Positions 165 to 49,414 of a stretch of 49,442 nucleotides of DNA are shown one piece after another. Source of the stretch: a virus (lineage: Duplodnaviria; Heunggongvirae; Uroviricota; Caudoviricetes). Position numbers and translations under genes: made by a program. Where the stretch lies: the IMG/VR virus record IMGVR_UViG_2537561691_000009; one strand, given 5' to 3'. Each line of letters begins with the position of its first letter. The stretch's first letter is position 1. The notes under the pieces were generated by a model, which was not told the DNA's origin, searched no databases, and saw only the letters and a list, made by a program, of their open reading frames with translations.

Positions 165-1295
165 TCAAATGACCAGTTTTTTCCATTCCTTACCGCGTGC
201 GTCGTTGTAAATATCGGTCATTTTTTGATTCGAATGGCCTAGCAAAATTTTGGTATCAACCCCCTGCTCTCTGAACAATCGCTCTGATAAAGATCTCTGC
301 TCATGGAAAGAGGGTGGGGTGCCATTAGCACGCCAGTTGTAATCCACAGAATCCCGGGCTTTTTTAAATGCAACGGTTAATGTTGCTGGCTTAACCATCC
401 CGCCGCGCTTAGCTGTCCCTTTCGCGTGATGGTGGTGCAATAGCCACGGACTAAGAACGCAATCGCGGCAGGATGACACTACATCATCCAGGGTGAGATT
501 TAATTTATCGCAACGCAGAGCCAGAGGGATGGCAATCCGGGTTCCTGTTTTTTGCTGTTCGACATGAAGATAACCATCCCGGATATCCGAAAATTGCATT
601 TTGCAAATATCTGAAAGGCGCTGGCCTGTCATCAGTGCCAGCAGCATACCGCGCTGTAAAAAGTAACCATCCTTTTCCGCTGCGTTATAAATCATCATCC
701 ACTCATCAAAAGTCAGTCGCTGTCTTGATATCCGCACCTGCGGTTTTTTTGCCGATTCTGCAGGGTTAAAGCCTGGCGGGACATCGCCCGTTTGCTGAGC
801 TTCCCGGAAAACATCGATCAGTACTTTCCTGAAAATTTGTCCCATTCTGTTATGTCCTCTGGCCTTGTACTCTTCCAGTACTGATACCACATCTTTTACG
901 GTTATGGCATCTAACGGTCTGGTGCCAAAACGTTCATCAAATACCCTGAGAGGGGCCGCTTTCTGTTTCAGCGTGTTGAGTTTGATCTCGCCGTTTTCAT
1001 ATCTTTCCTGTTGAATTTTTCTGTAATTATTCAGAAAAATGGTAACGGTTGATGAACCGCCGGTATCACTAATAATTTTCTCCTGCAGACTGAGCATTTG
1101 TTCCATTTGCTGCCGGGCAAGACGGCTGTTCGCTTCTGCTGCAATAGTTTCTGCCAGTTTCTGGTCAATACTGCCGAGACCGTGATTTTTGCCTGTTATG
1201 GGATGCCTGTAACGCCAGTAAACTTTGTTATTTCTTTTGTCAAAATACGGAGATAATCCCGGAACATCGGTTTTATATTTTCGCGGGCGCGCCAT
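165..1295 (-). CDS. int: Tyrosine site-specific integrase
   Basis: 376-aa ORF next to attL; C-terminal LGHS...MT..Y tyrosine-recombinase motif; phage-integrase-like N-terminus. Confidence 0.92.
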   Translation of the reverse strand: MARPRKYKTDVPGLSPYFDKRNNKVYWRYRHPITGKNHGLGSIDQKLAETIAAEANSRLARQQMEQMLSLQEKIISDTGGSSTVTIFLNNYRKIQQERYENGEIKLNTLKQKAAPLRVFDERFGTRPLDAITVKDVVSVLEEYKARGHNRMGQIFRKVLIDVFREAQQTGDVPPGFNPAESAKKPQVRISRQRLTFDEWMMIYNAAEKDGYFLQRGMLLALMTGQRLSDICKMQFSDIRDGYLHVEQQKTGTRIAIPLALRCDKLNLTLDDVVSSCRDCVLSPWLLHHHHAKGTAKRGGMVKPATLTVAFKKARDSVDYNWRANGTPPSFHEQRSLSERLFREQGVDTKILLGHSNQKMTDIYNDARGKEWKKLVI

Positions 1296-16623: not shown

Positions 16624-16699
16624 GGCCCTTTAGCTCAGTGGTGAGAGCGAGCGACTCATAATCGCCAGGTCGCTGGTTCAAATCCAGCAAGGGCCACCA
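16624..16699 (+). tRNA. tRNA with CAU anticodon (Ile2/ileZ-like, or Met)
   Basis: Cloverleaf parsed by hand: acceptor ggccctt/aagggcc, anticodon loop ctCATaa, T-loop ttcaaat, 3' CCA. Confidence 0.8.
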
Positions 16700-16706
16700 T
16701 CACATA

Positions 16707-16783
16707 CCGCCATTAGCTCATCAGGAAAGAGCGCCAGCCTTCGAAGCTGGTTGCGCGGGGTTCAAGTCCCCGATGGCGGTCCA
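16707..16783 (+). tRNA. tRNA-Arg (anticodon UCG)
   Basis: Acceptor ccgccat/atggcgg, anticodon loop ctTCGaa, T-loop ttcaagt, 3' CCA. Confidence 0.8.
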
Positions 16784-16796
16784 TTATCTGCATCAT

Positions 16797-16873
16797 GCGT
16801 TGTTAGCTCAGCCGGACAGAGCAATTGCCTTCTAAGCAATCGGTCACTGGTTCGAATCCAGTACAACGCGCCA
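16797..16873 (+). tRNA. tRNA-Arg (anticodon UCU)
   Basis: Acceptor gcgttgt/acaacgc, anticodon stem attgc/gcaat, loop ctTCTaa, T-loop ttcgaat, 3' CCA. Confidence 0.8.
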
Positions 16874-38123: not shown

Positions 38124-41100
38124 ATGGGCAAAGGTGGCGGCAAGGCGCACACACCGCGTGAGGCGAAAGACAATCTCAAATCCACGCAGATGATGAGCGT
38201 GATTGATGCGATTGGTGAGGGGCCGATAGATGGCCCGGTGAAAGGCCTGCAGAGTATTCTGGTGAACAAAACCCCGCTGACGGACACGGACGGTAATCCC
38301 GTGATACACGGTGTGACCGCGGTCTGGCGTGCCGGGGAGCAGGAGCAGACACCACCGGAAGGCTTTGAGTCCTCCGGCTCTGAAACTGTACTGGGTGTCG
38401 AAGTGACCAGGGCAAAACCGGTAACACGCACCATTACGTCAGCGAACATTGACCGCCTGCGGGTGACCTTCGGGGTGCAGTCACTGGTGGAGACCACGTC
38501 AAAGGGTGACCGTAATCCGTCCTCTGTCCGTCTGCTGATTCAGTTACAGCGTAACGGTAACTGGGTGACAGAAAAGGATGTCACCATTAACGGCAAGACC
38601 ACCTCACAGTTCCTGGCCTCGGTGATTCTGGATAATCTGCCTCCCCGCCCCTTTAACATCCGGATGGTCAGGGAGACGGCGGACAGCACCACGGACCAGC
38701 TGCAGAACAGAACGCTGTGGTCGTCATACACCGAAATCATCGATGTGAAACAGTGCTACCCGAACACGGCCATTGTGGGGATGCAGGTGGATGCGGAGCA
38801 GTTTGGTGGTCAGCAGATGACGGTGAACTACCATATCCGCGGTCGCATCATCCAGGTGCCGTCAAACTATGACCCGGAAAAACGCACGTACAGTGGTATC
38901 TGGGACGGCAGTCTGAAACCGGCATACAGCAACAATCCGGCTTGGTGTCTGTGGGACATGCTGACTCACCCGCGCTACGGCATGGGAAAACGTCTGGGGG
39001 CGGCGGATGTGGACAAGTGGGCGCTGTATGCCATCGGGCAGTACTGCGACCAGATGGTGCCGGATGGCTTCGGGGGCACCGAGCCGCGGATGACCTTCAA
39101 TGCGTACCTGGCACAACAGCGTAAGGCGTGGGATGTTCTCAGTGATTTCTGCTCGGCGATGCGCTGTATGCCGGTATGGAACGGCCAGATGCTGACGTTT
39201 GTTCAGGACCGCCTGTCGGATGTGGTGTGGCCGTACACCAACAGCGATGTGGTGGTGGATGATAACGGCGTGGGGTTCCGCTACAGCTTCAGTGCCCTGA
39301 AGGACCGGCACACGGCGGTGGAGGTGAATTACACCGACCCGCAGAACGGCTGGCAGACCTCCACGGAGCTGGTGGAAGACCCGGAAGCCATACTGCGCTA
39401 CGGGCGCAATCTGCTGAAGATGGACGCGTTCGGCTGTACCAGCCGCGGTCAGGCCCACCGTGCCGGACTGTGGGTGATAAAGACCGAACTGCTGGAAACG
39501 CAGACGGTGGATTTCACGCTCGGGTCTCAGGGGCTGCGGCACACACCCGGTGACATTATTGAAATCTGTGATAATGACTATGCCGGGACCCTGACCGGCG
39601 GACGTGTCCTGTCCATTGATGCTGCCACCCGCACCCTGACGCTGGACCGTGAGGTTACCCTGCCGGAGACCGGTGCCGCCACGGTGAACCTGATTAACGG
39701 CAGCGGTAAGCCGGTGAGTGTGGACATCACCGAACACCCCGCGCCGGACCGGATACAGGTCAGTACCCTGCCTGATGGTGTGGAGACATACGGGGTGTGG
39801 GGACTCTCCCTGCCGTCACTGCGCCGTCGCCTGTTCCGCTGTGTCTCCATCCGGGAAAACACGGACGGCACCTTTGCCATCACGGCGGTGCAGCACGTAC
39901 CGGAAAAAGAAGCCATCGTGGATAACGGTGCCCGCTTTGAGCCGCAGTCAGGTTCCCTGAACAGCGTCATCCCACCGGCAGTGCAGCACCTGACGGTGGA
40001 GGTGAGCGCAGCTGACGGCCAGTATCTGGCGCAGGCGAAATGGGACACGCCGCGGGTGGTGAAGGGTGTGCGCTTCAGTCTGCGCCTGACCAGTGGTAAG
40101 GGAACGGATGCCAGACTGGTGACCACCGCCATCACCGCAGACACGGAGCACCGTTTCAGCGGCCTGCCGCTCGGGGAATACACCCTGACGGTGCGGGCGA
40201 TAAACAGCTATGGCCAGCAGGGTGAACCTGCCACCACCACCTTCCGGATTACCGCACCGGCAGCACCGTCGCGGATTGAGCTGACGCCGGGCTATTTTCA
40301 GATAACCGCAACGCCACATCTTGCCGTTTATGACCCGACGGTACAGTTTGAGTTCTGGTTCTCGGAAAAGCGGATTGCGGATATCAGGCAGGTTGAAACC
40401 GCAGCCCGCTATCTTGGCTCGGCGCTGTACTGGATAGCTGCCAGTATCAATATCAAACCGGGCCATGATTATTATTTTTATATCCGCAGTGTGAATACTG
40501 TTGGCAAATCGGCATTCGTGGAGGCTGTCGGTCGGGCGAGCGATGATGCGGAAGGTTACCTGGATTTTTTCAAAGGAGAAATCGGGAAAACACATCTGGC
40601 CCAGGAGCTGTGGACGCAGATTGATAACGGTCAGCTTGCGCCGGACCTGGCTGAAATCAGGACGTCCATTACGAATGTCAGCAATGAAATCACGCAGACC
40701 GTCAATAAAAAACTGGAAAATCAGAGTGCGGCAATCCAGCAGATACAGAAAGTTCAGGTTGATACAAATAATAACCTGAACAGCATGTGGGCCGTGAAAC
40801 TGCAGCAGATGCAGGACGGACGCCTTTATATTGCGGGTATCGGTGCCGGTATTGAGAATACGCCAGCAGGAATGCAGAGTCAGGTGCTGCTGGCGGCAGA
40901 CAGGATTGCGATGATTAATCCTGCGAATGGCAACACAAAGCCGATGTTTGTTGGTCAGGGCGATCAGATATTTATGAATGAAGTGTTCCTGAAATATCTG
41001 ACGGCTCCCACCATTACCAGCGGCGGGAATCCTCCGGCATTTTCCCTGACACCGGACGGGCGGCTGACGGCGAAAAATGCCGATATCAGCGGTAACGTGA

Positions 41101-41597
41101 ATGCGAACTCCGGGACGCTCAACAACGTCACGATTAACGAGAACTGTCGGGTTCTGGGAAAATTGTCCGCGAACCAGATTGAAGGCGATCTCGTTAAAAC
41201 AGTGGGCAAAGCTTTCCCCCGGGACTCCCGTGCACCGGAGCGGTGGCCATCAGGAACCATTACCGTCAGGGTTTATGACGATCAGCCGTTTGACCGGCAG
41301 ATTGTTATTCCGGCGGTGGCATTCAGCGGCGCTAAACATGAGAAAGAGCATACTGATATTTACTCCTCATGCCGTCTGATAGTGCGGAAAAACGGTGCTG
41401 AAATTTATAACCGTACCGCGCTGGATAATACGCTGATTTACAGTGGTGTTATTGATATGCCTGCCGGTCACGGTCACATGACACTGGAGTTTTCGGTGTC
41501 AGCATGGCTGGTAAATAACTGGTATCCCACAGCAAGTATCAGCGATTTGCTGGTTGTGGTGATGAAGAAAGCCACTGCAGGCATCACGATTAGCTGA
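38124..41597 (+). CDS. J: Central tail fibre / host specificity protein J
   Basis: 1157 aa; size and position of lambda gpJ. Confidence 0.92.
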
Positions 41598-41664: not shown

Positions 41665-42264
41665 ATGCGTAAATTATGTGCTGTTATTTTGTCCGCAGTA
41701 GTCTGGCAGGTCGCCGCTGCTACGCCAGCGAGTGCAGCAGAACATCAGTCCACGCTGAGCGCGGGGTATCTCCATGCCTCGACGAACGTTCCCGGTAGTG
41801 ATGATCTGAACGGGATTAACGTGAAATACCGTTATGAGTTTACGGACACGCTGGGGCTGGTGACGTCATTCAGTTATGCCAATGCCAAAGATGAGCAAAA
41901 AACGCATTACAGCGATACCCGCTGGCATGAAGATTCCGTGCGTAACCGCTGGTTCAGCGTGATGGCGGGGCCGTCTGTGCGCGTGAATGAATGGTTCAGC
42001 GCGTATGCGATGGCGGGTGTGGCTTACAGCCGTGTGTCGACTTTCTCCGGGGATTATCTCCGCGTAACTGACAACAAGGGGAAAACGCACGATGTGCTGA
42101 CCGGAAGTGATGACGGTCGCCACAGCAACACGTCTCTGGCGTGGGGGGCTGGCGTGCAGTTTAACCCGACCGAATCCGTGACCATTGACCTTGCTTATGA
42201 AGGTTCCGGTAGTGGCGACTGGCGAACGGATGCATTTATTGTTGGTATCGGATACCGTTTCTGA
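41665..42264 (+). CDS. lom: Lom-like outer membrane beta-barrel protein (Ail/Lom/OmpX family)
   Basis: 199 aa with signal peptide and C-terminal GIGYRF; follows J as in lambda. Confidence 0.88.
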   Translation: MRKLCAVILSAVVWQVAAATPASAAEHQSTLSAGYLHASTNVPGSDDLNGINVKYRYEFTDTLGLVTSFSYANAKDEQKTHYSDTRWHEDSVRNRWFSVMAGPSVRVNEWFSAYAMAGVAYSRVSTFSGDYLRVTDNKGKTHDVLTGSDDGRHSNTSLAWGAGVQFNPTESVTIDLAYEGSGSGDWRTDAFIVGIGYRF

Positions 42265-42368
42265 CAACAGACGCCGATTTATCTTCTGTAAATATTGTTA
42301 TGATACGCAGGTTCATCCACCTTATGGGGTGAACTGCGTTTGAGGAAACGTAAAGTTACACTGTCCTG

Positions 42369-42401
42369 AAGCCCGTGGCGTCACTGCTGCGGGCTTTTTT
42401 T
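42369..42401 (+). terminator. Rho-independent terminator after lom
   Basis: aagcccg...cgggctt hairpin followed by T7. Confidence 0.65.
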
Positions 42402-42415
42402 ATTGGTGGAAAAGT

Positions 42416-45322
42416 ATGACAGTAAAAATTTCTGGCGTGCTTAAAGATGGCACAGGAAAACCAGTACAGAACTGCACCATTGTGCTGAAGGCCAGACGAA
42501 CCAGCAGCACGGTGGTGGTGAACACGGTGGCCTCTGAAAATCCGGATGAAGCCGGACGTTACAGCATGGATGTTGAGCATGGTCAGTACAGCGTCACCCT
42601 GCTGGTTGAAGGTTTTCCGCCTTCACATGCCGGGACCATTACCGTCTATGAAGGTTCCAGACCAGGTACGCTGAATGATTTTCTCGGTGCCATGACGGAG
42701 GATGATGTCCGACCGGAGGCACTGCGCCGCTTTGAGCAGATGGTGGAAGAGGTGTCACGTAACGCCTCCGCGGTTGCACAGAATACGGCAGCCGCGAAAA
42801 AATCAGCCAGCGATGCCAGTGCATCAGCCAGCGAGGCGGCAACTCATGCAACCGATGCTGCAGCCTCAGCACGTGCCGCCAGCACGTCAGCCGGACAGGC
42901 CGCGTCGTCGGCTCAGTCAGCGTCTTCCAGCGCAGGAACGGCATCGACAAAGGCCCGTGAAGCAGCAAAAAGTGCTGCTGCTGCAGAGTCATCAAAAAGC
43001 GCGGCAGCTACCAGCGCCAGTGCCGCGAAAACGTCAGAAACGAATGCCGCAGCATCACAAAAATCGGCAGCCACTTCTGCATCCACAGCGACCACGAAGG
43101 CGTCAGAAGCTGCCACCTCGGCACGGGGTGCGGCGGCCTCAAAAGAGGCAGCGAAATCATCAGAAACGAACGCATCATCAAGCGCCAGTAGTGCCGCTTC
43201 CTCGGCAACGGCGGCAGGCAATTCCGCGAAGGCGGCAAAGACGTCTGAGACAAACGCCAGGTCTTCTGAAACGGCAGCGGGACAGAGCGCCTCGGCTGCG
43301 GCAGGCTCAAAAACAGCGGCTGCGTCGTCTGCCAGTGCCGCGTCAACAAGTGCCGGGCAGGCCTCAGCCAGTGCCACCGCCGCCGGAAAATCGGCAGAAA
43401 GCGCCGCATCATCCGCTTCAACAGCCACAACGAAGGCTGGCAAAGCCACTGAGCAAGCCACTGCAGCAGCGAGGTCTGCTTCTGCAGCAAAAACCTCTGA
43501 AACAAATGCAAAGACTTCAGCAGACAATGCTGCTTCCTCTAAGGCGGCAGCCGCATCGTCAGCCAGTTCAGCGGCGTCATCGGCATCATCTGCGTCTGCT
43601 TCAAAAGATGAGGCGACCAGACAAGCGTCAGCAGCGAAAGGTAGTGCCACGACAGCAACAATGAAAGCATCAGAGGCAGCTGGTAGTGTGACGGCGGCAG
43701 CTCAGAGCAAAAGTACGGCGGAATCCGCGGCAACGCGCGCCGAGACAGCAGCAAAACGGGCAGAGGATATTGCATCCGCCGTGGCGCTGGAGGATGCGAG
43801 CACGACGAAAAAGGGGATAGTACAGCTCAGCAGTGCGACCAACAGCACTTCCGAGTCACTGGCGGCAACGCCAAAAGCGGTTAAGGCGGTAATGGGTGAA
43901 ACGAACAAGAAAGCGCCCTTAAATAGTCCTGCACTGACCGGAACGCCAACAACACCAACTGCGCGACAGGGAACGAATAATACCCAAATCGCAAGCACGG
44001 CTTATGTTATGGCTGCGATCGCTGCCCTCGTGGACTCGTCGCCTGACGCACTGAATACGCTGAACGAGCTGGCTGCGGCGTTGGGCAACGACCCGAATTT
44101 TGCGACCACCATGACTAACGCGCTTGCGGGTAAGCAACCGAAAGATGCCACCCTGACGGCGCTGGCCGGGCTTGCTACTGCGGCAGACAGGTTTCCGTAT
44201 TTTACGGGGAATGATGTTGCCAGTCTGGCAACCCTGACAAAAGTTGGGCGGGATATTCTTGCGAAATCGACCGTTGCCGCCGTTATCGAATACCTCGGTT
44301 TACAGGAAACGGTAAACAAGGCTGGTAACGCCGTTCAGCGTTCCGGCGATAAAATGACCGGAGAACTGAAAATTGGCACGGTGAATGCGCTGCGAATTTT
44401 CAATGATGCCTTCGGTCTTATTTTCCGTCGTTCAGAAGATTTTCTTCATTTCATTCCGACGGCTGAAGGACAAGGCGAAAACGGTGATATAGGCCCATTA
44501 AGGCCATTCGCTATAAATCTGAGAACAGGTGCTATATCTGTCAGCCACGGGGCCAAAATTGATGGTGGGCTGGCGCTTGGTACAGATAACGCACTGGGCG
44601 GTAATTCCATTACTCTCGGAGATAACGACACTGGTATTAAACAGGGCGGCGACGGTGTCCTTTTATTCTATTCAAATGGACAACTGGCATTTGGACTTCA
44701 ACCCGCATCTGCTGATTTTTATAAGCGGGTTGCATATATTCATCAGGGAATAATTCCTGATGGAAGTGGCGCATTTGCAGACCAGTTGAATAATGCCACC
44801 GCGCCTTTTGTTCAGACGCAGTTTGCCTGGAATCCCACTCCTGGTGGTCATTACGTGCCGATAGTTAAGGGCTTGTCCATTCGCAATGGACAGGGCTATC
44901 CCGGCGCGGTCAGCTTTGGGTATTTACTGACAGAACAGTATGGATTTCCGGTTCCATGTATTCATATGCGTGGCGATGGCGGTAATGATGCTTTATGGCA
45001 GTTTAACCCGAACGATAAATCCTTTATTTCACCGGGTGCTCTTATTGCGGGTGGCGTCCGTTATAACACCGATGGAAATATATTTGGTGGGTGCTGGGGT
45101 TCAAACTTAAATGATTACCTGAATAGTTCTTTTATCAGAAATGTGCGTCTGGGAGGCAGACGTTCTGACACATTATATCGCGGAGGACTTTGCGAACCAG
45201 GTAATGGTCATGTGACAACAGGATTGCAAATTATTGGTGAGGTTGATGGAGATGACTGGATGGTGTCACGACCACTACAAAAATACATTTCTGGTAACTG
45301 GTATAACGTTGAACAGGCATAG
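42416..45322 (+). CDS. stf: Side tail fibre protein Stf (constant N-terminal part, Ala/Ser-rich repeat region, variable C-terminus inside invertible segment)
   Basis: 968 aa; long A/S/T-rich low-complexity core; gix-like crossover site inside at 44283..44310. Confidence 0.88.
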   Translation: MTVKISGVLKDGTGKPVQNCTIVLKARRTSSTVVVNTVASENPDEAGRYSMDVEHGQYSVTLLVEGFPPSHAGTITVYEGSRPGTLNDFLGAMTEDDVRPEALRRFEQMVEEVSRNASAVAQNTAAAKKSASDASASASEAATHATDAAASARAASTSAGQAASSAQSASSSAGTASTKAREAAKSAAAAESSKSAAATSASAAKTSETNAAASQKSAATSASTATTKASEAATSARGAAASKEAAKSSETNASSSASSAASSATAAGNSAKAAKTSETNARSSETAAGQSASAAAGSKTAAASSASAASTSAGQASASATAAGKSAESAASSASTATTKAGKATEQATAAARSASAAKTSETNAKTSADNAASSKAAAASSASSAASSASSASASKDEATRQASAAKGSATTATMKASEAAGSVTAAAQSKSTAESAATRAETAAKRAEDIASAVALEDASTTKKGIVQLSSATNSTSESLAATPKAVKAVMGETNKKAPLNSPALTGTPTTPTARQGTNNTQIASTAYVMAAIAALVDSSPDALNTLNELAAALGNDPNFATTMTNALAGKQPKDATLTALAGLATAADRFPYFTGNDVASLATLTKVGRDILAKSTVAAVIEYLGLQETVNKAGNAVQRSGDKMTGELKIGTVNALRIFNDAFGLIFRRSEDFLHFIPTAEGQGENGDIGPLRPFAINLRTGAISVSHGAKIDGGLALGTDNALGGNSITLGDNDTGIKQGGDGVLLFYSNGQLAFGLQPASADFYKRVAYIHQGIIPDGSGAFADQLNNATAPFVQTQFAWNPTPGGHYVPIVKGLSIRNGQGYPGAVSFGYLLTEQYGFPVPCIHMRGDGGNDALWQFNPNDKSFISPGALIAGGVRYNTDGNIFGGCWGSNLNDYLNSSFIRNVRLGGRRSDTLYRGGLCEPGNGHVTTGLQIIGEVDGDDWMVSRPLQKYISGNWYNVEQA
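44283..44310. promoter_or_regulatory. Left crossover site (gix/hix-like) of invertible tail-fibre segment
   Basis: ttatcgaatacctcggtttacaggaaac; inverted copy at 47364..47389 (22 of 26 positions match). Confidence 0.7.
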
Positions 45323-45337
45323 CCATCAGGAGAATAT

Positions 45338-45865
45338 ATGCAACATCTGAAAAATATTACCGCCGGAAACCCCAAAACCATTGAGCAGTATCAGCTTACG
45401 AAAAAAGCTGGCGTTATCTGGCTATATACAGAAGACGGTAAAAACTGGTATGACGAATTAAAAAACTTTCAGGATGATACTTTAAAAATAGCTTATGACC
45501 AGAAGGGGATTATTCGTTGTATTGAGAAAGACGTATCAACACTTAACCCTGACGGGTTAAGTGTTGTTGAGTTACCGAATATAACAGCCAACCGTCGCGC
45601 CGATATCTCGGGAAACTGGAAGTTTCTGGATGGTAAAGTAGTAAAGCGGGAATATACAAAACAGGAACTGCAACAGCAGGCAGAGTTACAAAAAGCCGCT
45701 TTGCTTTCCGAAGCGGAGTCTGTGATTCAACCGCTGGAACGTGCTGTCAGACTGAATATGGCAACTGATGAGGAACGCACACGACTGGAATCATGGGAAC
45801 GCTACAGCGTTATGGTCAGCCGTGTGGATACTGCAAAGCCTGAATGGCCACAGAAACCAGAATAA
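45338..45865 (+). CDS. tfa: Tail fibre assembly protein Tfa
   Basis: 175 aa directly after stf. Confidence 0.85.
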
Positions 45866-45874
45866 CAACAAATT

Positions 45875-45894
45875 AAGGCCCGTACGGGCCTTTT
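45875..45894. terminator. Bidirectional terminator hairpin between convergent tfa genes
   Basis: aaggcccgtacgggcctttt. Confidence 0.6.
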
Positions 45895-45895
45895 C

Positions 45896-46429
45896 TTATT
45901 CTGGTGGTTCCGGGAATGTTACAGGAAGAACCGAGGTATCAGTTGTCTCAACCTGTTGCACGTATCGCATCCAGTTCATCAGTTGCTGTCTGTCTGAATC
46001 AGTGATAATCCCCAAAGTAAGCTGTGTTTGCCAGAACTGCGTTTTTTCTCTGGCCTGCTGTAATAATATTTTTTTCTGGTTTTCCGTCTGTAGGCGCAAC
46101 TCTTCTTCGGTATATACACGTTTAATGACTGCGCCATCTTTAAACATCCATTTACCTGAGTCGTCAGCACGCCGGTTGGCGGTAATATCAGGAATCTCAA
46201 CGACGCTATAACCTTCAGGGTTAAGTGTGGAGGCATCTTTGGTTATGGCAACAATAATATTATTTTCATCGTAAACAATCTTTATGGTGTCTGGCTGAAA
46301 GTTTTTCACTTCCTCATACCAGTTTTTTTCGTCCTCAGAGTAAAGCCAGATAACTCCGTGTTTCTTTGTTAACTCATACTGTTCCAGTGTTTTAGCATTA
46401 CCCGCTTTTATGTTCTTTAAGTGCATCAT
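45896..46429 (-). CDS. Alternative tail fibre assembly protein Tfa'
   Basis: 177-aa ORF resembling tfa at 45338..45865 in reading and layout, inverse orientation. Confidence 0.8.
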
Positions 46430-46430
46430 A

Positions 46431-47381
46431 TTAAACGCTCGCTACATTATACCAGGTGCCATTTATATACTTTTGAACGGGTCTGTAATAAACGCCCGCT
46501 ATATTATCGGCAGAGTTAGACCCTGTATCCTGAACATTAATACCAGACAATACATGACCTGAAGGGCACCGGAAATACCATGTTTGCCAGTTGTTCACTC
46601 CATAATATTGCTGTGAACCAAGTCGAACATCTTTCACATAACGGGAATCAAAGTTACCGTAATCCGAGGGGTTAACACGCCCTGTAATATTTATGGTTTT
46701 ATTACTTTGAATGCTTCCGGAGACAAAGCGCATAACATGGACGTTATTAGCATAAACATCCAGATTACCATCGCCATTTTGTTTAAAGCCCGTGTCATTA
46801 TCACCCAATACAATCGAATTACCGCCAAGAGCACTGGATGTTCCGATACCCAGTGTACCATTCAGTTGACCACCAGATAACGGCAGTGCACCAACATCTC
46901 CTGCTGAAGGTTTTCTGGTGGTGGTGTAAAATTCGGACCAGTCGGCTTCAAAACCATAACCATCACGGGCTGAACGATAAAAAACACCGCCATTTTTATA
47001 ATTAATCCGAAACTGAGCTGCAGGACAACTTCCTTCTCCCATATAAAAATGAATAATTAACGTTGATGCACCACTAATAGTTGCGTTATAGGCTCCGCTA
47101 CTCCAGTTCCATCCAACTGCTTTATCATTCGCAACGGTGCTTCCTGTTTTCCCTAAGGCAAACGCACCAACATGACTTGCTTTTAATGTGATATCGGAGG
47201 AACCATCAAAAGCCACATTGCTTATTTTCCTGGCAGTTTTTAATTTTGCAGCTGTAGAAGCATTGCCGGATAGTTCACCAGAAAGGCCACCGCTGAATGT
47301 TTGTCGATTAGTCCAGGTATTCGCTGTACTGAGTAACGGTATTTTCTCCCCGCTTGTGCCGAGTTCTCGTAAACCGAGGTT
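46431..47381 (-). CDS. Alternative Stf C-terminal segment (no independent start; joined to stf constant part upon inversion)
   Basis: Minus-strand frame open from the right crossover site to 46431; shares LGGNSI.LGDNDTG.KQ and RP.QKYI.G.WYNV motifs with the stf C-terminus. Confidence 0.75.
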
Positions 47382-47389
47382 TTAGATAA
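47364..47389. promoter_or_regulatory. Right crossover site (gix/hix-like, inverted)
   Basis: ttctcgtaaaccgaggttttagataa, inverted copy of the site at 44283..44310. Confidence 0.7.
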
Positions 47390-47443
47390 TGGCGGTTTCT
47401 GGCCTGTATGGCATGATTTGTGCTTTTGGACGGGAGATTCAGC

Positions 47444-47680
47444 GTGCTGATTGGCTATGTAAGGGTATCAACAAATGACCAGAATACAGATCTGCAACGA
47501 AACGCTCTTGTTTGTGCAGGATATGAACAAATATTTGAAGATAAATTAAGCGGAACAAGGACAGGCCGACCTGGATTAAAACGTGCTTTAAAGCGCCTTC
47601 AAAAAGGTGACGCACTGGTTGTCTGAAAACTGGACTGACTGGTTCACTGTATGCGGCATCTTGTCGTGCTGGTGGTGGAA
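47444..47680 (+). pseudogene. pin: Decayed Pin/Gin/Hin-family serine DNA invertase (nonsense codons and 3' truncation)
   Basis: N-terminus MLIGYVRVSTNDQNTDLQRNALVCAG... is invertase-like but an in-frame TGA follows GDALVV, a second stop follows in the KLD...L.VHCMRHL remnant, and the gene ends at a tfa 3' repeat. Confidence 0.75.
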
Positions 47681-47819
47681 GCCTGGAAAAAGTATCGGGT
47701 GTTGCTGAACCGTGTTGATACATCAACTGCACCTGATATTGAGTGGCCTACGAACCCTGTCAGGGAGTAATCATTGGGATTATGCCGCAGCACGTCTTAA
47801 GCAAGAACGTGCTGCGGTT
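47678..47819. repeat. Direct repeat copy 1 (tfa 3' end fragment plus terminator hairpin)
   Basis: About 142 bp with only scattered mismatches relative to 48727..48869, including an identical 39-bp core. Confidence 0.8.
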
Positions 47820-47824
47820 GGATG

Positions 47825-48493
47825 CTATTTTTTCCCTGAAGCGGAAAACATTACTACAGTACCTTGAACCTTGGTTTTAACATTCTCGAAATGCTCTGAG
47901 AGTATATGTGTTAAGCCTTCTTCGGAATCTTTTGTGTTTGAAAAGATGCCTTTCTGATTGTAAATGCGCATCAGTTTTTGACCGAAGCTATTGTGCACAA
48001 CTCCATCGCCAAGAATTGTGGCTCCGTATAGAGTTCCATCGTCAGTTAAGGCCTGCGCCGCATTGCGTATTACACAGCTTTTTGTAGATATATTTCCAGG
48101 CAGGCAGTGAAGAAGGTAAAACATGGAAATGGAATCAAATTGACCATGTAACGCCGCGGGATAAGGTTCAAAAACATCATGGCTAATTTTATGTTTAATT
48201 TTTGATTCCCCAGCCCTTGTAGATGCCGCGTTCAGGCTAGCTTCGTTCAAATCCATTAAAGATATCAGACTACTCTCAGGTACGTGAGTAAGGTAAAACC
48301 CAGTTCCAACACCAATATCCAGATGGTTGTTACCTACATGTTCCAGAAAGTGTGGAAGAAGGTGTTCCTTTGTAGGACATCCCCATGCAAGCCGATTTGA
48401 TACTCCCAAAACCCACCAGTCATAAAGCTTTAGGGTAAGTGGTGTGTAAATTTTAGCACCATCATCTGTGTTTTTTTTCATTGATTTCACCAT
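47825..48493 (-). CDS. Class I SAM-dependent methyltransferase-like protein (cargo/moron)
   Basis: 222 aa with LDIGVGTG SAM-binding motif; AT-rich; bracketed by tfa 3' direct repeats. Confidence 0.7.
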   Translation of the reverse strand: MVKSMKKNTDDGAKIYTPLTLKLYDWWVLGVSNRLAWGCPTKEHLLPHFLEHVGNNHLDIGVGTGFYLTHVPESSLISLMDLNEASLNAASTRAGESKIKHKISHDVFEPYPAALHGQFDSISMFYLLHCLPGNISTKSCVIRNAAQALTDDGTLYGATILGDGVVHNSFGQKLMRIYNQKGIFSNTKDSEEGLTHILSEHFENVKTKVQGTVVMFSASGKK

Positions 48494-48549
48494 GTTATAG
48501 TTTTATTTGTGAATTAAATCAATTATGGCGATGAATTACAAGGGGTTAA

Positions 48550-48819
48550 ATGCTGCCGCAGCATAGCGATATTGAAATAGCCTGGTATGCTTCGATACAG
48601 CAGGAGCCGAATGGCTGGAAGACCGTCACCACACAGTTCTACATCCAGGAATTCAGTGAGTATATTGCGCCACTGCAGGATGCTGTAGATCTGGAAATCG
48701 CAACGGAGGAAGAAAGATCGTTGCTGGAGGCATGGAATAAATATCGGGTATTGTTGAATCGTGTTGATACATCAACTGCACCTGATATTGAGTGGCCTGC
48801 AAATCCTGTCAGGGAGTAA
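48550..48819 (+). CDS. Tfa-like C-terminal domain protein, 89 aa (short tail fibre assembly homolog)
   Basis: C-terminus resembles the tfa C-terminus (EER..LE.W..Y...RVDT...EWP); ends in repeat copy 2. Confidence 0.55.
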
Positions 48820-48869
48820 TCATTGGGATTATGCCGCAGACACGTCGTATGCAGGAACGTGCTGCGGTT
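48727..48869. repeat. Direct repeat copy 2 (tfa-like 3' end plus hairpin)
   Basis: Matches 47678..47819. Confidence 0.8.
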
Positions 48870-49104
48870 AGTTTGTGAGCTTTCGATAGTGGTTGTTATT
48901 TTTGCCCTTATTTGTTCCGGAGGCCATGGTTCAATGGTCCGTCTGCCCCCTGTGGTGATGTCAGCAAAATCAGCCACTGCGCGAACCACAATAGCCCGGG
49001 AAGATGCTGAAGATCACCAGGTAAAGCTATCAGCGCAGAAACTGGAAGAACTGCTCGCATCAATGGTTAAGGATGAGGTTGATCGCAATGATGGGATTTA
49101 TTGA
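48823..49104 (+). CDS. Hypothetical protein (start uncertain)
   Basis: 93-aa ORF; hydrophobic then charged segment. Confidence 0.3.
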   Translation: MGLCRRHVVCRNVLRLVCELSIVVVIFALICSGGHGSMVRLPPVVMSAKSATARTTIAREDAEDHQVKLSAQKLEELLASMVKDEVDRNDGIY

Positions 49105-49414
49105 CGTCAGCGAGAGCAGAAGGAAGAACTGAATAACCTGAATGATTTACGCTCAATCAGAGCGATGATGATTGGCAGTAATTAGCGGTCAATTTCGGTT
49201 TTTTTGGCTGTGCGCTCCCCGCCCAGCATTGCGCGTCAATTAGCCCCAAAAAAACGAAAAAGTTACAATCAAGTAAAAAATTCCTTCTGCAAAACTAAAA
49301 AAGATTTCAATAAAATCAGACAGTTAAAAACATAAAAAAAAGGTACAAAAAAACATCTCAAAGTCTTGTTTTTTGCTTCAAATACAATTGGTTATTGTGT
49401 TTTTTGAAACCTAC

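Follow-up and report, generated by a model that had tools for sequence, protein, structure and literature searches.

The window, by which we mean the whole 49,442-nt stretch of caudoviral DNA that was analysed, carries a lambdoid tail-fibre locus with the layout of an inversion switch. Its features are collected in Table 1. One C-terminal part of the fibre gene stf and the assembly gene tfa lie on one strand, whereas a second assembly gene (tfa') and an alternative C-terminal exon (stf') lie on the other, and the whole is bracketed by two crossover sites. Thus, the host-range inversion module that the first-pass annotation had proposed for the tail fibre turns out to be right in every main point of its anatomy.

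Table 1. Features of the tail-fibre switch and their positions in the window.
Feature	Positions	Strand	Remarks
stf, constant N-terminal part	42416..44294	+	Fixed when the segment flips; ORF of 968 aa (whole Stf)
Left crossover site, gix-type, 26 bp	44283..44308	+	Inside stf; central dinucleotide TC at 44295-44296
Stf variable C-terminus, expressed orientation	44297..45322	+	In frame with the constant part, giving 968 aa
tfa, tail fibre assembly chaperone belonging to the expressed C-terminus	45338..45865	+	Pfam Caudo_TAP, E=9e-35
GC-rich hairpin between convergent tfa and tfa'	45875..45892		Terminator-like on both strands; consensus match only
tfa', alternative assembly chaperone	45896..46429	-	Pfam Caudo_TAP, E=6e-32
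stf', alternative Stf C-terminal exon	46431..47375	-	Silent here; open in frame to the crossover; Pfam gp37_C
Right crossover site, gix-type, 26 bp	47364..47389	+	Central dinucleotide GA at 47376-47377
Gin/Pin-type serine invertase remnant	47444..47660	+	3' limit approximate; stops at 47624-47626 and 47636-47638
Putative equivalent of the Fis-dependent recombinational enhancer (sis)	47462..47533		Inside the invertase stub; function predicted from sequence
tfa-derived tail replacing the rest of the invertase gene	47673..47790	+	91% direct repeat of 48722-48839

To locate the crossover sites, the window was scanned with the Mu gixR reference (taken from NC_000929) allowing at most 3 mismatches. 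The scan returned only the left site, on the minus strand, and the right site, on the plus strand, against 0 matches expected from 100 shuffles. Two inverted sites of the gix type had been claimed before, and indeed these are 26 bp each and the sole gixR matches in the window. The left site reads TTATCGAATACC TC GGTTTACAGGAA and equals the reverse strand of gixR at 24 of the 26 positions; the right site, TTCTCGTAAACC GA GGTTTTAGATAA, does so for the forward sequence at 23. Together they form a 32-nt inverted repeat (84%) and have a GA/TC core in common, again in inverted orientation. Because the central dinucleotide is identical at both sites, the strands can be religated after rotation by 180 degrees. 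The centre of the right site lies 67.5 nt from the start of the invertase gene, which is the same distance as between gixR and gin in Mu. The two sites are the Phi4_5prime and Phi4_3prime sites of EC958, an E. coli O25b:H4-ST131 strain: what the window shows here is the locus of its prophage Phi4, and the finding is as such already known.

The constant part of Stf contains a phage_tail_N domain (Pfam, residues 1-134, E=5e-70), and up to the left site stf shares 90-95% identity with the fibres of other prophages, after which the similarity stops. The expressed C-terminus is almost unrelated to the alternative one. Its partner Tfa counts 175 aa, equal in length to the U proteins of Mu and P1 and 78-79% identical to both, whereas Tfa' counts 177 aa, as does Mu U', and is 69% identical to Mu U' and 56% to Tfa. 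In the hairpin between the two convergent genes, which was matched by the scan on both strands, 5 of the 7 stem pairs are GC. A promoter scan of positions 45200-47900 gave fewer matches than in shuffled sequence and yielded nothing useful.

The alternative exon was said to be open up to the crossover. Translation of the minus strand from 47378 to 46431 bears this out, as no stop is met, and flipping the segment in silico yields a fused Stf reading frame of 941 aa. This same 941-aa fibre is annotated as intact in RefSeq (WP_023363168.1) in genomes having the flipped state. The alternative exon of prophage Phi1 in EC958 matches stf' at 97% identity.

The invertase gene next to the right site is a different matter. 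It starts at GTG 47444 and runs into a TGA after 60 codons (about 59 in the first-pass annotation, which had rightly described a decayed Pin/Gin-like gene with an early in-frame TGA), followed by the second predicted stop, also a TGA, four codons later. The 60-aa product is nonetheless identical to Mu Gin (PDB 4M6F/3UJ3) at 57 of its 60 residues. At the nucleotide level the first 180 positions agree with Mu gin at 174, against only 123 with P1 cin. Homology to intact genes degrades past approximately 47637, and weak Pin-like sequence extends to approximately 47660. The stub covers at most positions 2-91 of the 145 of the Pfam Resolvase model, and the Pfam search found no HTH_7 domain in it, whereas the intact invertases used for comparison have both Resolvase and HTH_7. 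From 47673 onwards the gene is cut off by a tfa-derived repeat, again as claimed: this tail corresponds to positions 104-130 of Caudo_TAP and repeats the tfa remnant found at 48722-48839. The stub/tfa-tail junction recurs in other prophages. Residual activity of the 60-aa product was considered and rejected, since it is without the C-terminal half of the catalytic domain, the E helix and the DNA-binding domain. The functional serine invertase beside the segment by which membership of the switch family is judged is lacking here, and no intact invertase was found anywhere in the 49-kb window.

What the stub does retain is a stretch equivalent to the recombinational enhancer, which we placed by means of the P1 record (where the Cin enhancer is annotated at nt 19-90 of cin). 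This stretch is identical to Mu gin at 70 of the 72 nucleotides. The stub shares two G-N13-C cores, putative Fis cores at nt 22-36 (47465-47479) and nt 71-85 (47514-47528), with Mu gin and with the three intact prophage invertase genes compared, whereas P1 cin has only the second; one of the two substitutions relative to Mu gin falls in this second core. The putative enhancer in the stub may be functional and required.

Results obtained on 5,426 complete E. coli genomes show that both orientations are common. The same locus with the same stub is found in the orientation of the window in 233 genomes and exactly inverted in 139, the latter count being of genomes to which an in-silico inverted construct could be matched from end to end (99.4-99.9% identity). 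In the inverted genomes the sites are the exact reciprocal hybrids TTATCGAATACCTCGGTTTACGAGAA and TTCCTGTAAACCGAGGTTTTAGATAA, as expected for exchange at the core, and in those checked the stub is identical, both TGAs included. For positions 43400-48500 the best full match in the census is 99.7%. Such genome snapshots record that flips happened, and say nothing of their rate or of the enzyme.

Pairs of isolates provide a closer look. After re-inversion, the segment of U12A equals that of U13A over 5,601 bp with zero mismatches; both isolates come from one patient and are 26 core SNPs apart (PMC6692316). Likewise, 4/0 and 4/1-1 are identical over 5,701 bp after re-inversion, also with zero mismatches. 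In the WS3294A assembly the two ends overlap and have the segment in opposite orientations (identity of the window to WS3294A is 100% only from 43900 to 47900, and 97-99% outside this interval). For EC958, the PacBio reads from a single culture were found by Forde et al. (2014, PLoS One 9:e104400) to include the locus in both orientations. Given the two orientations with the same stub, the flip within a patient and the mixed EC958 reads, we conclude that the switch works in nature. The first-pass annotation had called it locked unless an invertase acts in trans. The conditional clause stands, but "locked" does not hold as a headline in view of the 233 against 139 genomes, U12A/U13A and the EC958 reads.

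Flipping is most likely performed by the enzyme of another, co-resident prophage. In all sister genomes checked, a P2-like prophage encodes a Gin-family invertase that is intact. In EC958 this invertase (957668..958267) has Resolvase and HTH_7 domains, and 100%-identical copies of the EC958 type are present in 4/1-1, 4/4, AR_0055, AR_0058, JJ1886 and JJ1887 as well as in JJ2434, CD306, EcPF18 and E302. The genomes with 100%-identical Phi1-type copies span both orientations. U12A and U13A carry another intact invertase allele, and a 1.6-kb segment of their P2-like prophage is itself flipped between the two isolates. A regular-expression search found no gix-like sites in the P2-like prophage of U12A and U13A; its 1.6-kb segment uses more divergent sites. 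Some genomes with a related stub module show no second match at the megablast level, a sensitivity at which distant Pin alleles are invisible. A 190-aa invertase allele by phnP, 100% identical in at least 60 genomes, was dropped as a general candidate. Since this allele is absent at 100% identity from most of the ST131 genomes listed, the Phi1-type allele is preferred, and it would be the probable enzyme doing the work. Inversion in trans by the Phi1 invertase has been proposed before (Forde et al. 2014, PLoS One 9:e104400). For the window we assume, by analogy with these genomes, that its own host would supply an invertase in trans.

Taking the evidence together, we hold it to be highly probable that the locus is a cassette of the Mu G-segment type in a lambdoid stf, whose own invertase is dead and which is flipped in trans by the invertase of a co-resident prophage. 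A cassette of the Gin/Cin/Pin/Hin family would have been grafted onto the stf of the lambdoid prophage. A dimer of the serine invertase would bind each 26-bp site, and the two dimers would assemble with a Fis-bound cis enhancer (within ~90 nt of the start of the invertase gene) into an invertasome that exchanges strands at the central 2 bp. As the own invertase is dead while both sites and the enhancer-equivalent stretch are kept, the segment is expected to be inverted in trans, presumably by the intact Gin-family enzyme of the P2-like prophage located at serS in ST131. Each flip would swap the last 342 Stf codons and Tfa for a 315-codon C-terminus and Tfa', and the exchanged fibre tip would change receptor recognition; the two fibres thus probably differ in their receptor.

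Several observations could be read differently. The truncated invertase with its two in-frame stops and without a DNA-binding domain, together with the lack of another invertase in the 49-kb window, might point to a fossil switch, locked as seen because nothing else acts. Such a state is improbable for the locus as a whole: both orientations are common among loci with an identical stub, isolates of one patient differ only by the flip, and single cultures contain both orientations (EC958, and also WS3294A). It could nevertheless hold for an individual host without any Gin-family invertase. Cassette flipping in trans also has to be weighed against an old polymorphism that was spread by horizontal transfer or homologous prophage replacement, with no ongoing inversion. 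The module is indeed mosaic and mobile, and its stub junction occurs at other chromosomal sites with different cargo. However, U12A and U13A, although just 26 core SNPs apart, have opposite orientations and zero other changes in 5.6 kb, the EC958 reads are mixed within one culture, and the segment of the P2-like prophage has been flipped too within the same lineage; we therefore regard this explanation as very unlikely.

Finally, the segment is bounded by an imperfect inverted repeat (32-36 bp), which might allow RecA-dependent homologous recombination instead of site-specific inversion. This is extremely unlikely, given that the longest exact run common to both arms is 12 bp, which is shorter than the length needed for efficient RecA recombination. 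Moreover, every inverted genome checked places the exchange inside these 12 bp, around the central dinucleotide, which is where a serine invertase would be expected to act. Inversion in trans by the enzyme of a second prophage remains the preferred reading.

The surroundings of the stub raise a further possibility. The right site, the ~67-nt spacer, the 5' stub of gin with its putative sis enhancer and the tfa tail make up an island of 380 bp. Lambdoid prophages share its stub junction at no fewer than three places in the chromosome, namely ompW/trpA, a Rac-like site and a position adjoining bio; the junction is 97% conserved, whereas the cargo beside it is only 72-80% alike. A second type of cargo also occurs in both orientations (77 against 61 genomes). 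Tentatively, and with somewhat more doubt than confidence, the island may be seen as a conserved mobile "orphan switch" which contains only the cis elements that inversion needs and relies on the invertases of co-resident P2- or Mu-like prophages. If the stub persists for its enhancer, the host range of a lambdoid prophage would depend on whether a second prophage is there.

The switch sets which of two receptor-binding tips the side tail fibres carry. It is thereby relevant to the host range of the phage and, in the pandemic clone ST131, possibly also to superinfection or defence phenotypes. A practical warning concerns the heterogeneity in orientation, which leads to assembly artefacts and odd RefSeq pseudogene calls. 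The biology as such is classical and has been familiar since the 1980s from Mu, P1 and e14, and the dead invertase and the trans hypothesis for this very locus were published in 2014. Our additions are modest: a count at population scale, the exact reciprocal junctions, the flip within a patient and the enhancer-equivalent stretch kept in the stub.

The closest known system is Phi4 of EC958, for which a 3,106-bp invertible segment, a truncated invertase without HTH domain and sites at 1484784..1484809 and c1487865..1487890 (Table 3 therein) have been described (Forde et al. 2014, PLoS One 9:e104400). The coordinates of our two sites in the EC958 record match that table. Crossover sites, truncated invertase and the ompW remnant-trpA context are all the same as in the window, which stems from another strain and is 99.3% identical over 42040-49167. 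A difference is seen in lom, which is intact in the prophage of the window, with no IS insertion, whereas lom of EC958 carries ISEc12.

Patterns are similar for the Mu G segment, which has the same gene order (S constant, gix, Sv, U, U', S'v, gix, gin) and resembles our locus in the sites, the stub, the spacing between site and gene and the lengths of U and U'. Mu differs in the host element, which is here a lambdoid prophage with a long Stf and a dead gin gene. Furthermore, the cargo C-termini are different: the expressed one shows hardly any relationship to Mu S, and the identity of the alternative one to S' (84%) is limited to 93 aa. The P1 C segment with Cin (and p15B with Min) belongs to the same switch family, although Cin lies on the other side, in an arrangement opposite to that of the window. 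The P segment of E. coli K-12 e14 (PinE) resembles the present locus in that a defective prophage contains a tail-fibre cassette able to invert. It keeps its own pinE, whereas the invertase gene of the window is dead. For the e14 fibre StfE2 an altered sensitivity to other phages has been reported. Kirigo et al. (2025, NAR 53:gkaf1041) report that the e14 cassette is flipped by PinQ of the Qin prophage, and that the chimeric e14 fibre protein has an anti-phage role.

The tail-fibre switch of this prophage is not locked in practice. A query of 43400-48500 with 44295-47377 reverse-complemented in silico (inverted) was searched, alongside its native counterpart, in 5,426 complete E. coli genomes. 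Of these, 233 contain the full-length native arrangement and 139 the inverted one, the latter as one aligned piece at 99.4-99.9% identity. In the inverted examples inspected (U12A, 4/0, JJ1886 and one end of WS3294A) both crossover sites are exact reciprocal hybrids, TTATCGAATACCTCGGTTTACGAGAA and TTCCTGTAAACCGAGGTTTTAGATAA, just as exchange within the 12-bp core would produce. The decayed invertase gene beside the right-hand site (the stub) is identical there to that of native-orientation genomes, both TGAs included. Once re-inverted, U12A shows no mismatch to U13A along 5,601 bp, nor does 4/0 to 4/1-1 along 5,701 bp. The same patient yielded U12A and U13A one year apart, with 26 core SNPs between them (PMC6692316). 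Given these counts and the flip between U12A and U13A, the first-pass annotation needs correcting in one point of interpretation, namely that the switch is locked; the feature itself is real and was correctly described. As to the agent, the longest exact run common to the two arms of the inverted repeat is 12 bp, which speaks for a site-specific enzyme and against recombination that depends on RecA.

Layout of the prophage and its invertible tail-fibre segment (window coordinates)
Feature	Coordinates	Strand	Remarks
Integrase	165-1295		window start
Terminase, portal, capsid, tape measure	between integrase and J		
J	38124-41597		
Lom	41665-42264		
Stf	42416-45322		
siteL (crossover site inside stf)	44283-44308		TTATCGAATACC TC GGTTTACAGGAA
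Stf variable C-terminus and tfa	between sites	plus	
tfa' and alternative Stf C-terminus	between sites	minus	
siteR (crossover site beside the stub)	47364-47389		TTCTCGTAAACC GA GGTTTTAGATAA

Together, siteL and siteR form the core of an inverted repeat (32 nt, 84%). Reference sites gixL and gixR were taken from the phage Mu record; gixR, run against the window with up to three mismatches, matches at siteL and siteR only (0 expected in 100 shuffles). The central dinucleotide is identical at both, and the two crossover sites proposed earlier are thus confirmed. The in-frame alternative exon also holds, being stop-free from 47378 down to 46431, and flipping 44295-47377 in silico yields a fused fibre of 941 aa. 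Tfa and Tfa' both match Pfam Caudo_TAP, and their lengths are those of U and U' in Mu. Similarity to other prophages (EC958 Phi1, fS58a, SZQ1, Mu) begins or ends within a few bases of the crossover sites (window 44303-44323 and 47369), so the cargo enclosed by them behaves like a cassette open to exchange. Conservation is 97% in the island formed by siteR and the stub, whereas the adjoining cargo is only 72-80% alike (including comparison loci L016, L017 5426-5808, own coordinates).

The stub starts at GTG 47444 and has 60 residues, 57/60 identical to Mu Gin (PDB 4M6F, 3UJ3). A TGA stands in place of Trp61 (47624-47626) and a second follows at 47636-47638; the first stop had been recognised earlier, though after about 59 codons instead of 60, a trivial correction. 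In the alignment, identity to intact relatives is ~95% as far as ~47637, past which the stub is degraded yet recognisable (intact-relative counterpart KLDRLGRSMKHLISLVGE); from 47673 onward the sequence duplicates the tfa remnant (48722-48839) at 91%. The stub retains no HTH_7 domain, whereas intact comparators show Resolvase and HTH_7. The two TGAs, the tfa-derived tail and the missing HTH_7 bear out the decay of the gene, and tblastn of the whole window found no other invertase.

In this family, wild-type invertases depend on a cis-acting enhancer that is bound by Fis and lies in the 5' part of the invertase gene itself (Kahmann 1985; Johnson and Simon 1985; as cited in PMC3798978). The P1 record annotates it at cin nt 19-90; the stub counterpart, 47462-47533, is 70/72 identical to Mu gin, and the distance from site centre to invertase gene start is the same in Mu as in the window. 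Since this stretch is retained while the protein is lost, the truncation spared the sequence that trans-catalysed inversion would need. Judging from its sequence, the stretch may still function.

The enzyme for flipping the window's segment could be supplied by the intact invertase of a co-resident P2-like prophage. EC958, a strain of the ST131 clone that is 99.3% identical to the window across 42040-49167, carries such a prophage at serS, with an intact invertase of 199 aa (Resolvase and HTH_7). Copies 100% identical to it occur in genomes with the native arrangement (4/1-1, 4/4, AR_0055) as well as the inverted one (AR_0058, Ecol_AZ153, JJ1886, JJ1887, JJ2434, CD306, EcPF18, E302). The invertase at this position in U12A and U13A is likewise intact but of another allele. 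The P2-like prophage's own 1.6-kb tail-fibre segment lies opposite in U12A and U13A (L014 10800-12407 vs L015 11574-13180), which indicates that an invertase is active in that lineage. The paper on these genomes makes no mention of this flip (PMC6692316), and a simple sequence pattern did not find the crossover sites of the 1.6-kb segment. Window 46110-47634 (alternative exon, siteR and stub) is 96% identical to the matching part of the EC958 P2-like prophage, so both cassettes offer nearly the same sites.

The cassette also leaves its mark on public records. RefSeq lists stf of the native-orientation genomes EC958, WS3294A and U13A as a pseudogene ("missing C-terminus") and gives its variable part no annotation (L001 1517-4437, L003 44425-47331, L007); the ORF is open, 968 aa, where translated (EC958, WS3294A), and the 4/1-1 record has this gene as intact. 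This inconsistency is caused by the invertible cassette. The WS3294A RefSeq chromosome (NZ_CP035819.1) ends inside the methyltransferase gene and resumes within tail genes belonging to the same prophage, so that ~17 kb is duplicated (L002 1-17000, L003 33200-49965). Its first prophage copy is frameshifted and the segment is opposite in orientation between the copies, which looks like an untrimmed end overlap from a mixed-orientation culture; artefactual duplication of this kind was warned of by Forde et al. 2014 (PMC4134206).

The window as a whole is an E. coli lambdoid prophage of ~49 kb, its right end extending to an ompW remnant adjoining trpA, as in related genomes. In the late-regulatory region (16624-16873) three tRNA genes lie in a row (Met-CAT, Arg-TCG, Arg-TCT), a placement common to many lambdoid and Stx-type phages. 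The middle of Stf (42790-43700) is a long Ala/Ser/Thr-rich stretch with six degenerate 33-nt repeats (64-79% identity), from which long spurious ORFs arise on other frames and the other strand. A class I, SAM-dependent methyltransferase gene (47825-48493, minus strand) is flanked by 90-91% direct repeats from the tfa 3' end (47673-47819 and 48722-48869) and, by its sequence context, looks like a moron inserted via recombination between tfa copies. Within 48550-49110, another N-terminally truncated tfa copy (89-aa ORF, Caudo_TAP positions 75-130) is followed by a DUF4376 pseudogene remnant with an internal stop (RefSeq call); ahead of the ompW remnant the right arm is a heap of tail-fibre debris.

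The locus is already known: Forde et al. 2014 (PMC4134206) published exactly this one in EC958 prophage Phi4, with an invertible segment of 3,106 bp, two 26-bp sites whose coordinates coincide with those found here, a truncated invertase without HTH domain (EC958_1582) and the alternative orientation on a spurious PacBio contig. They explicitly suggested the Phi1 invertase in trans. Their report is extended slightly by the counts of genomes in each orientation, by junctions that are exactly reciprocal, by the flip within one patient and by the enhancer-equivalent stretch kept in the stub. A further addition is that the stub-plus-tfa junction also occurs in lambdoid prophages elsewhere on the chromosome, with other cargo and Trp61 intact; one such second module is itself present in both orientations (77 and 61 genomes). 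The sole mildly new angle is that this may be an orphan switch module, enhancer-only and reliant on the invertases of other prophages. A precedent between prophages is PinQ, which according to Kirigo et al. 2025 (NAR 53:gkaf1041) acts in trans on e14, and by type the system belongs to the classical family of Mu G, P1 C and e14 P.
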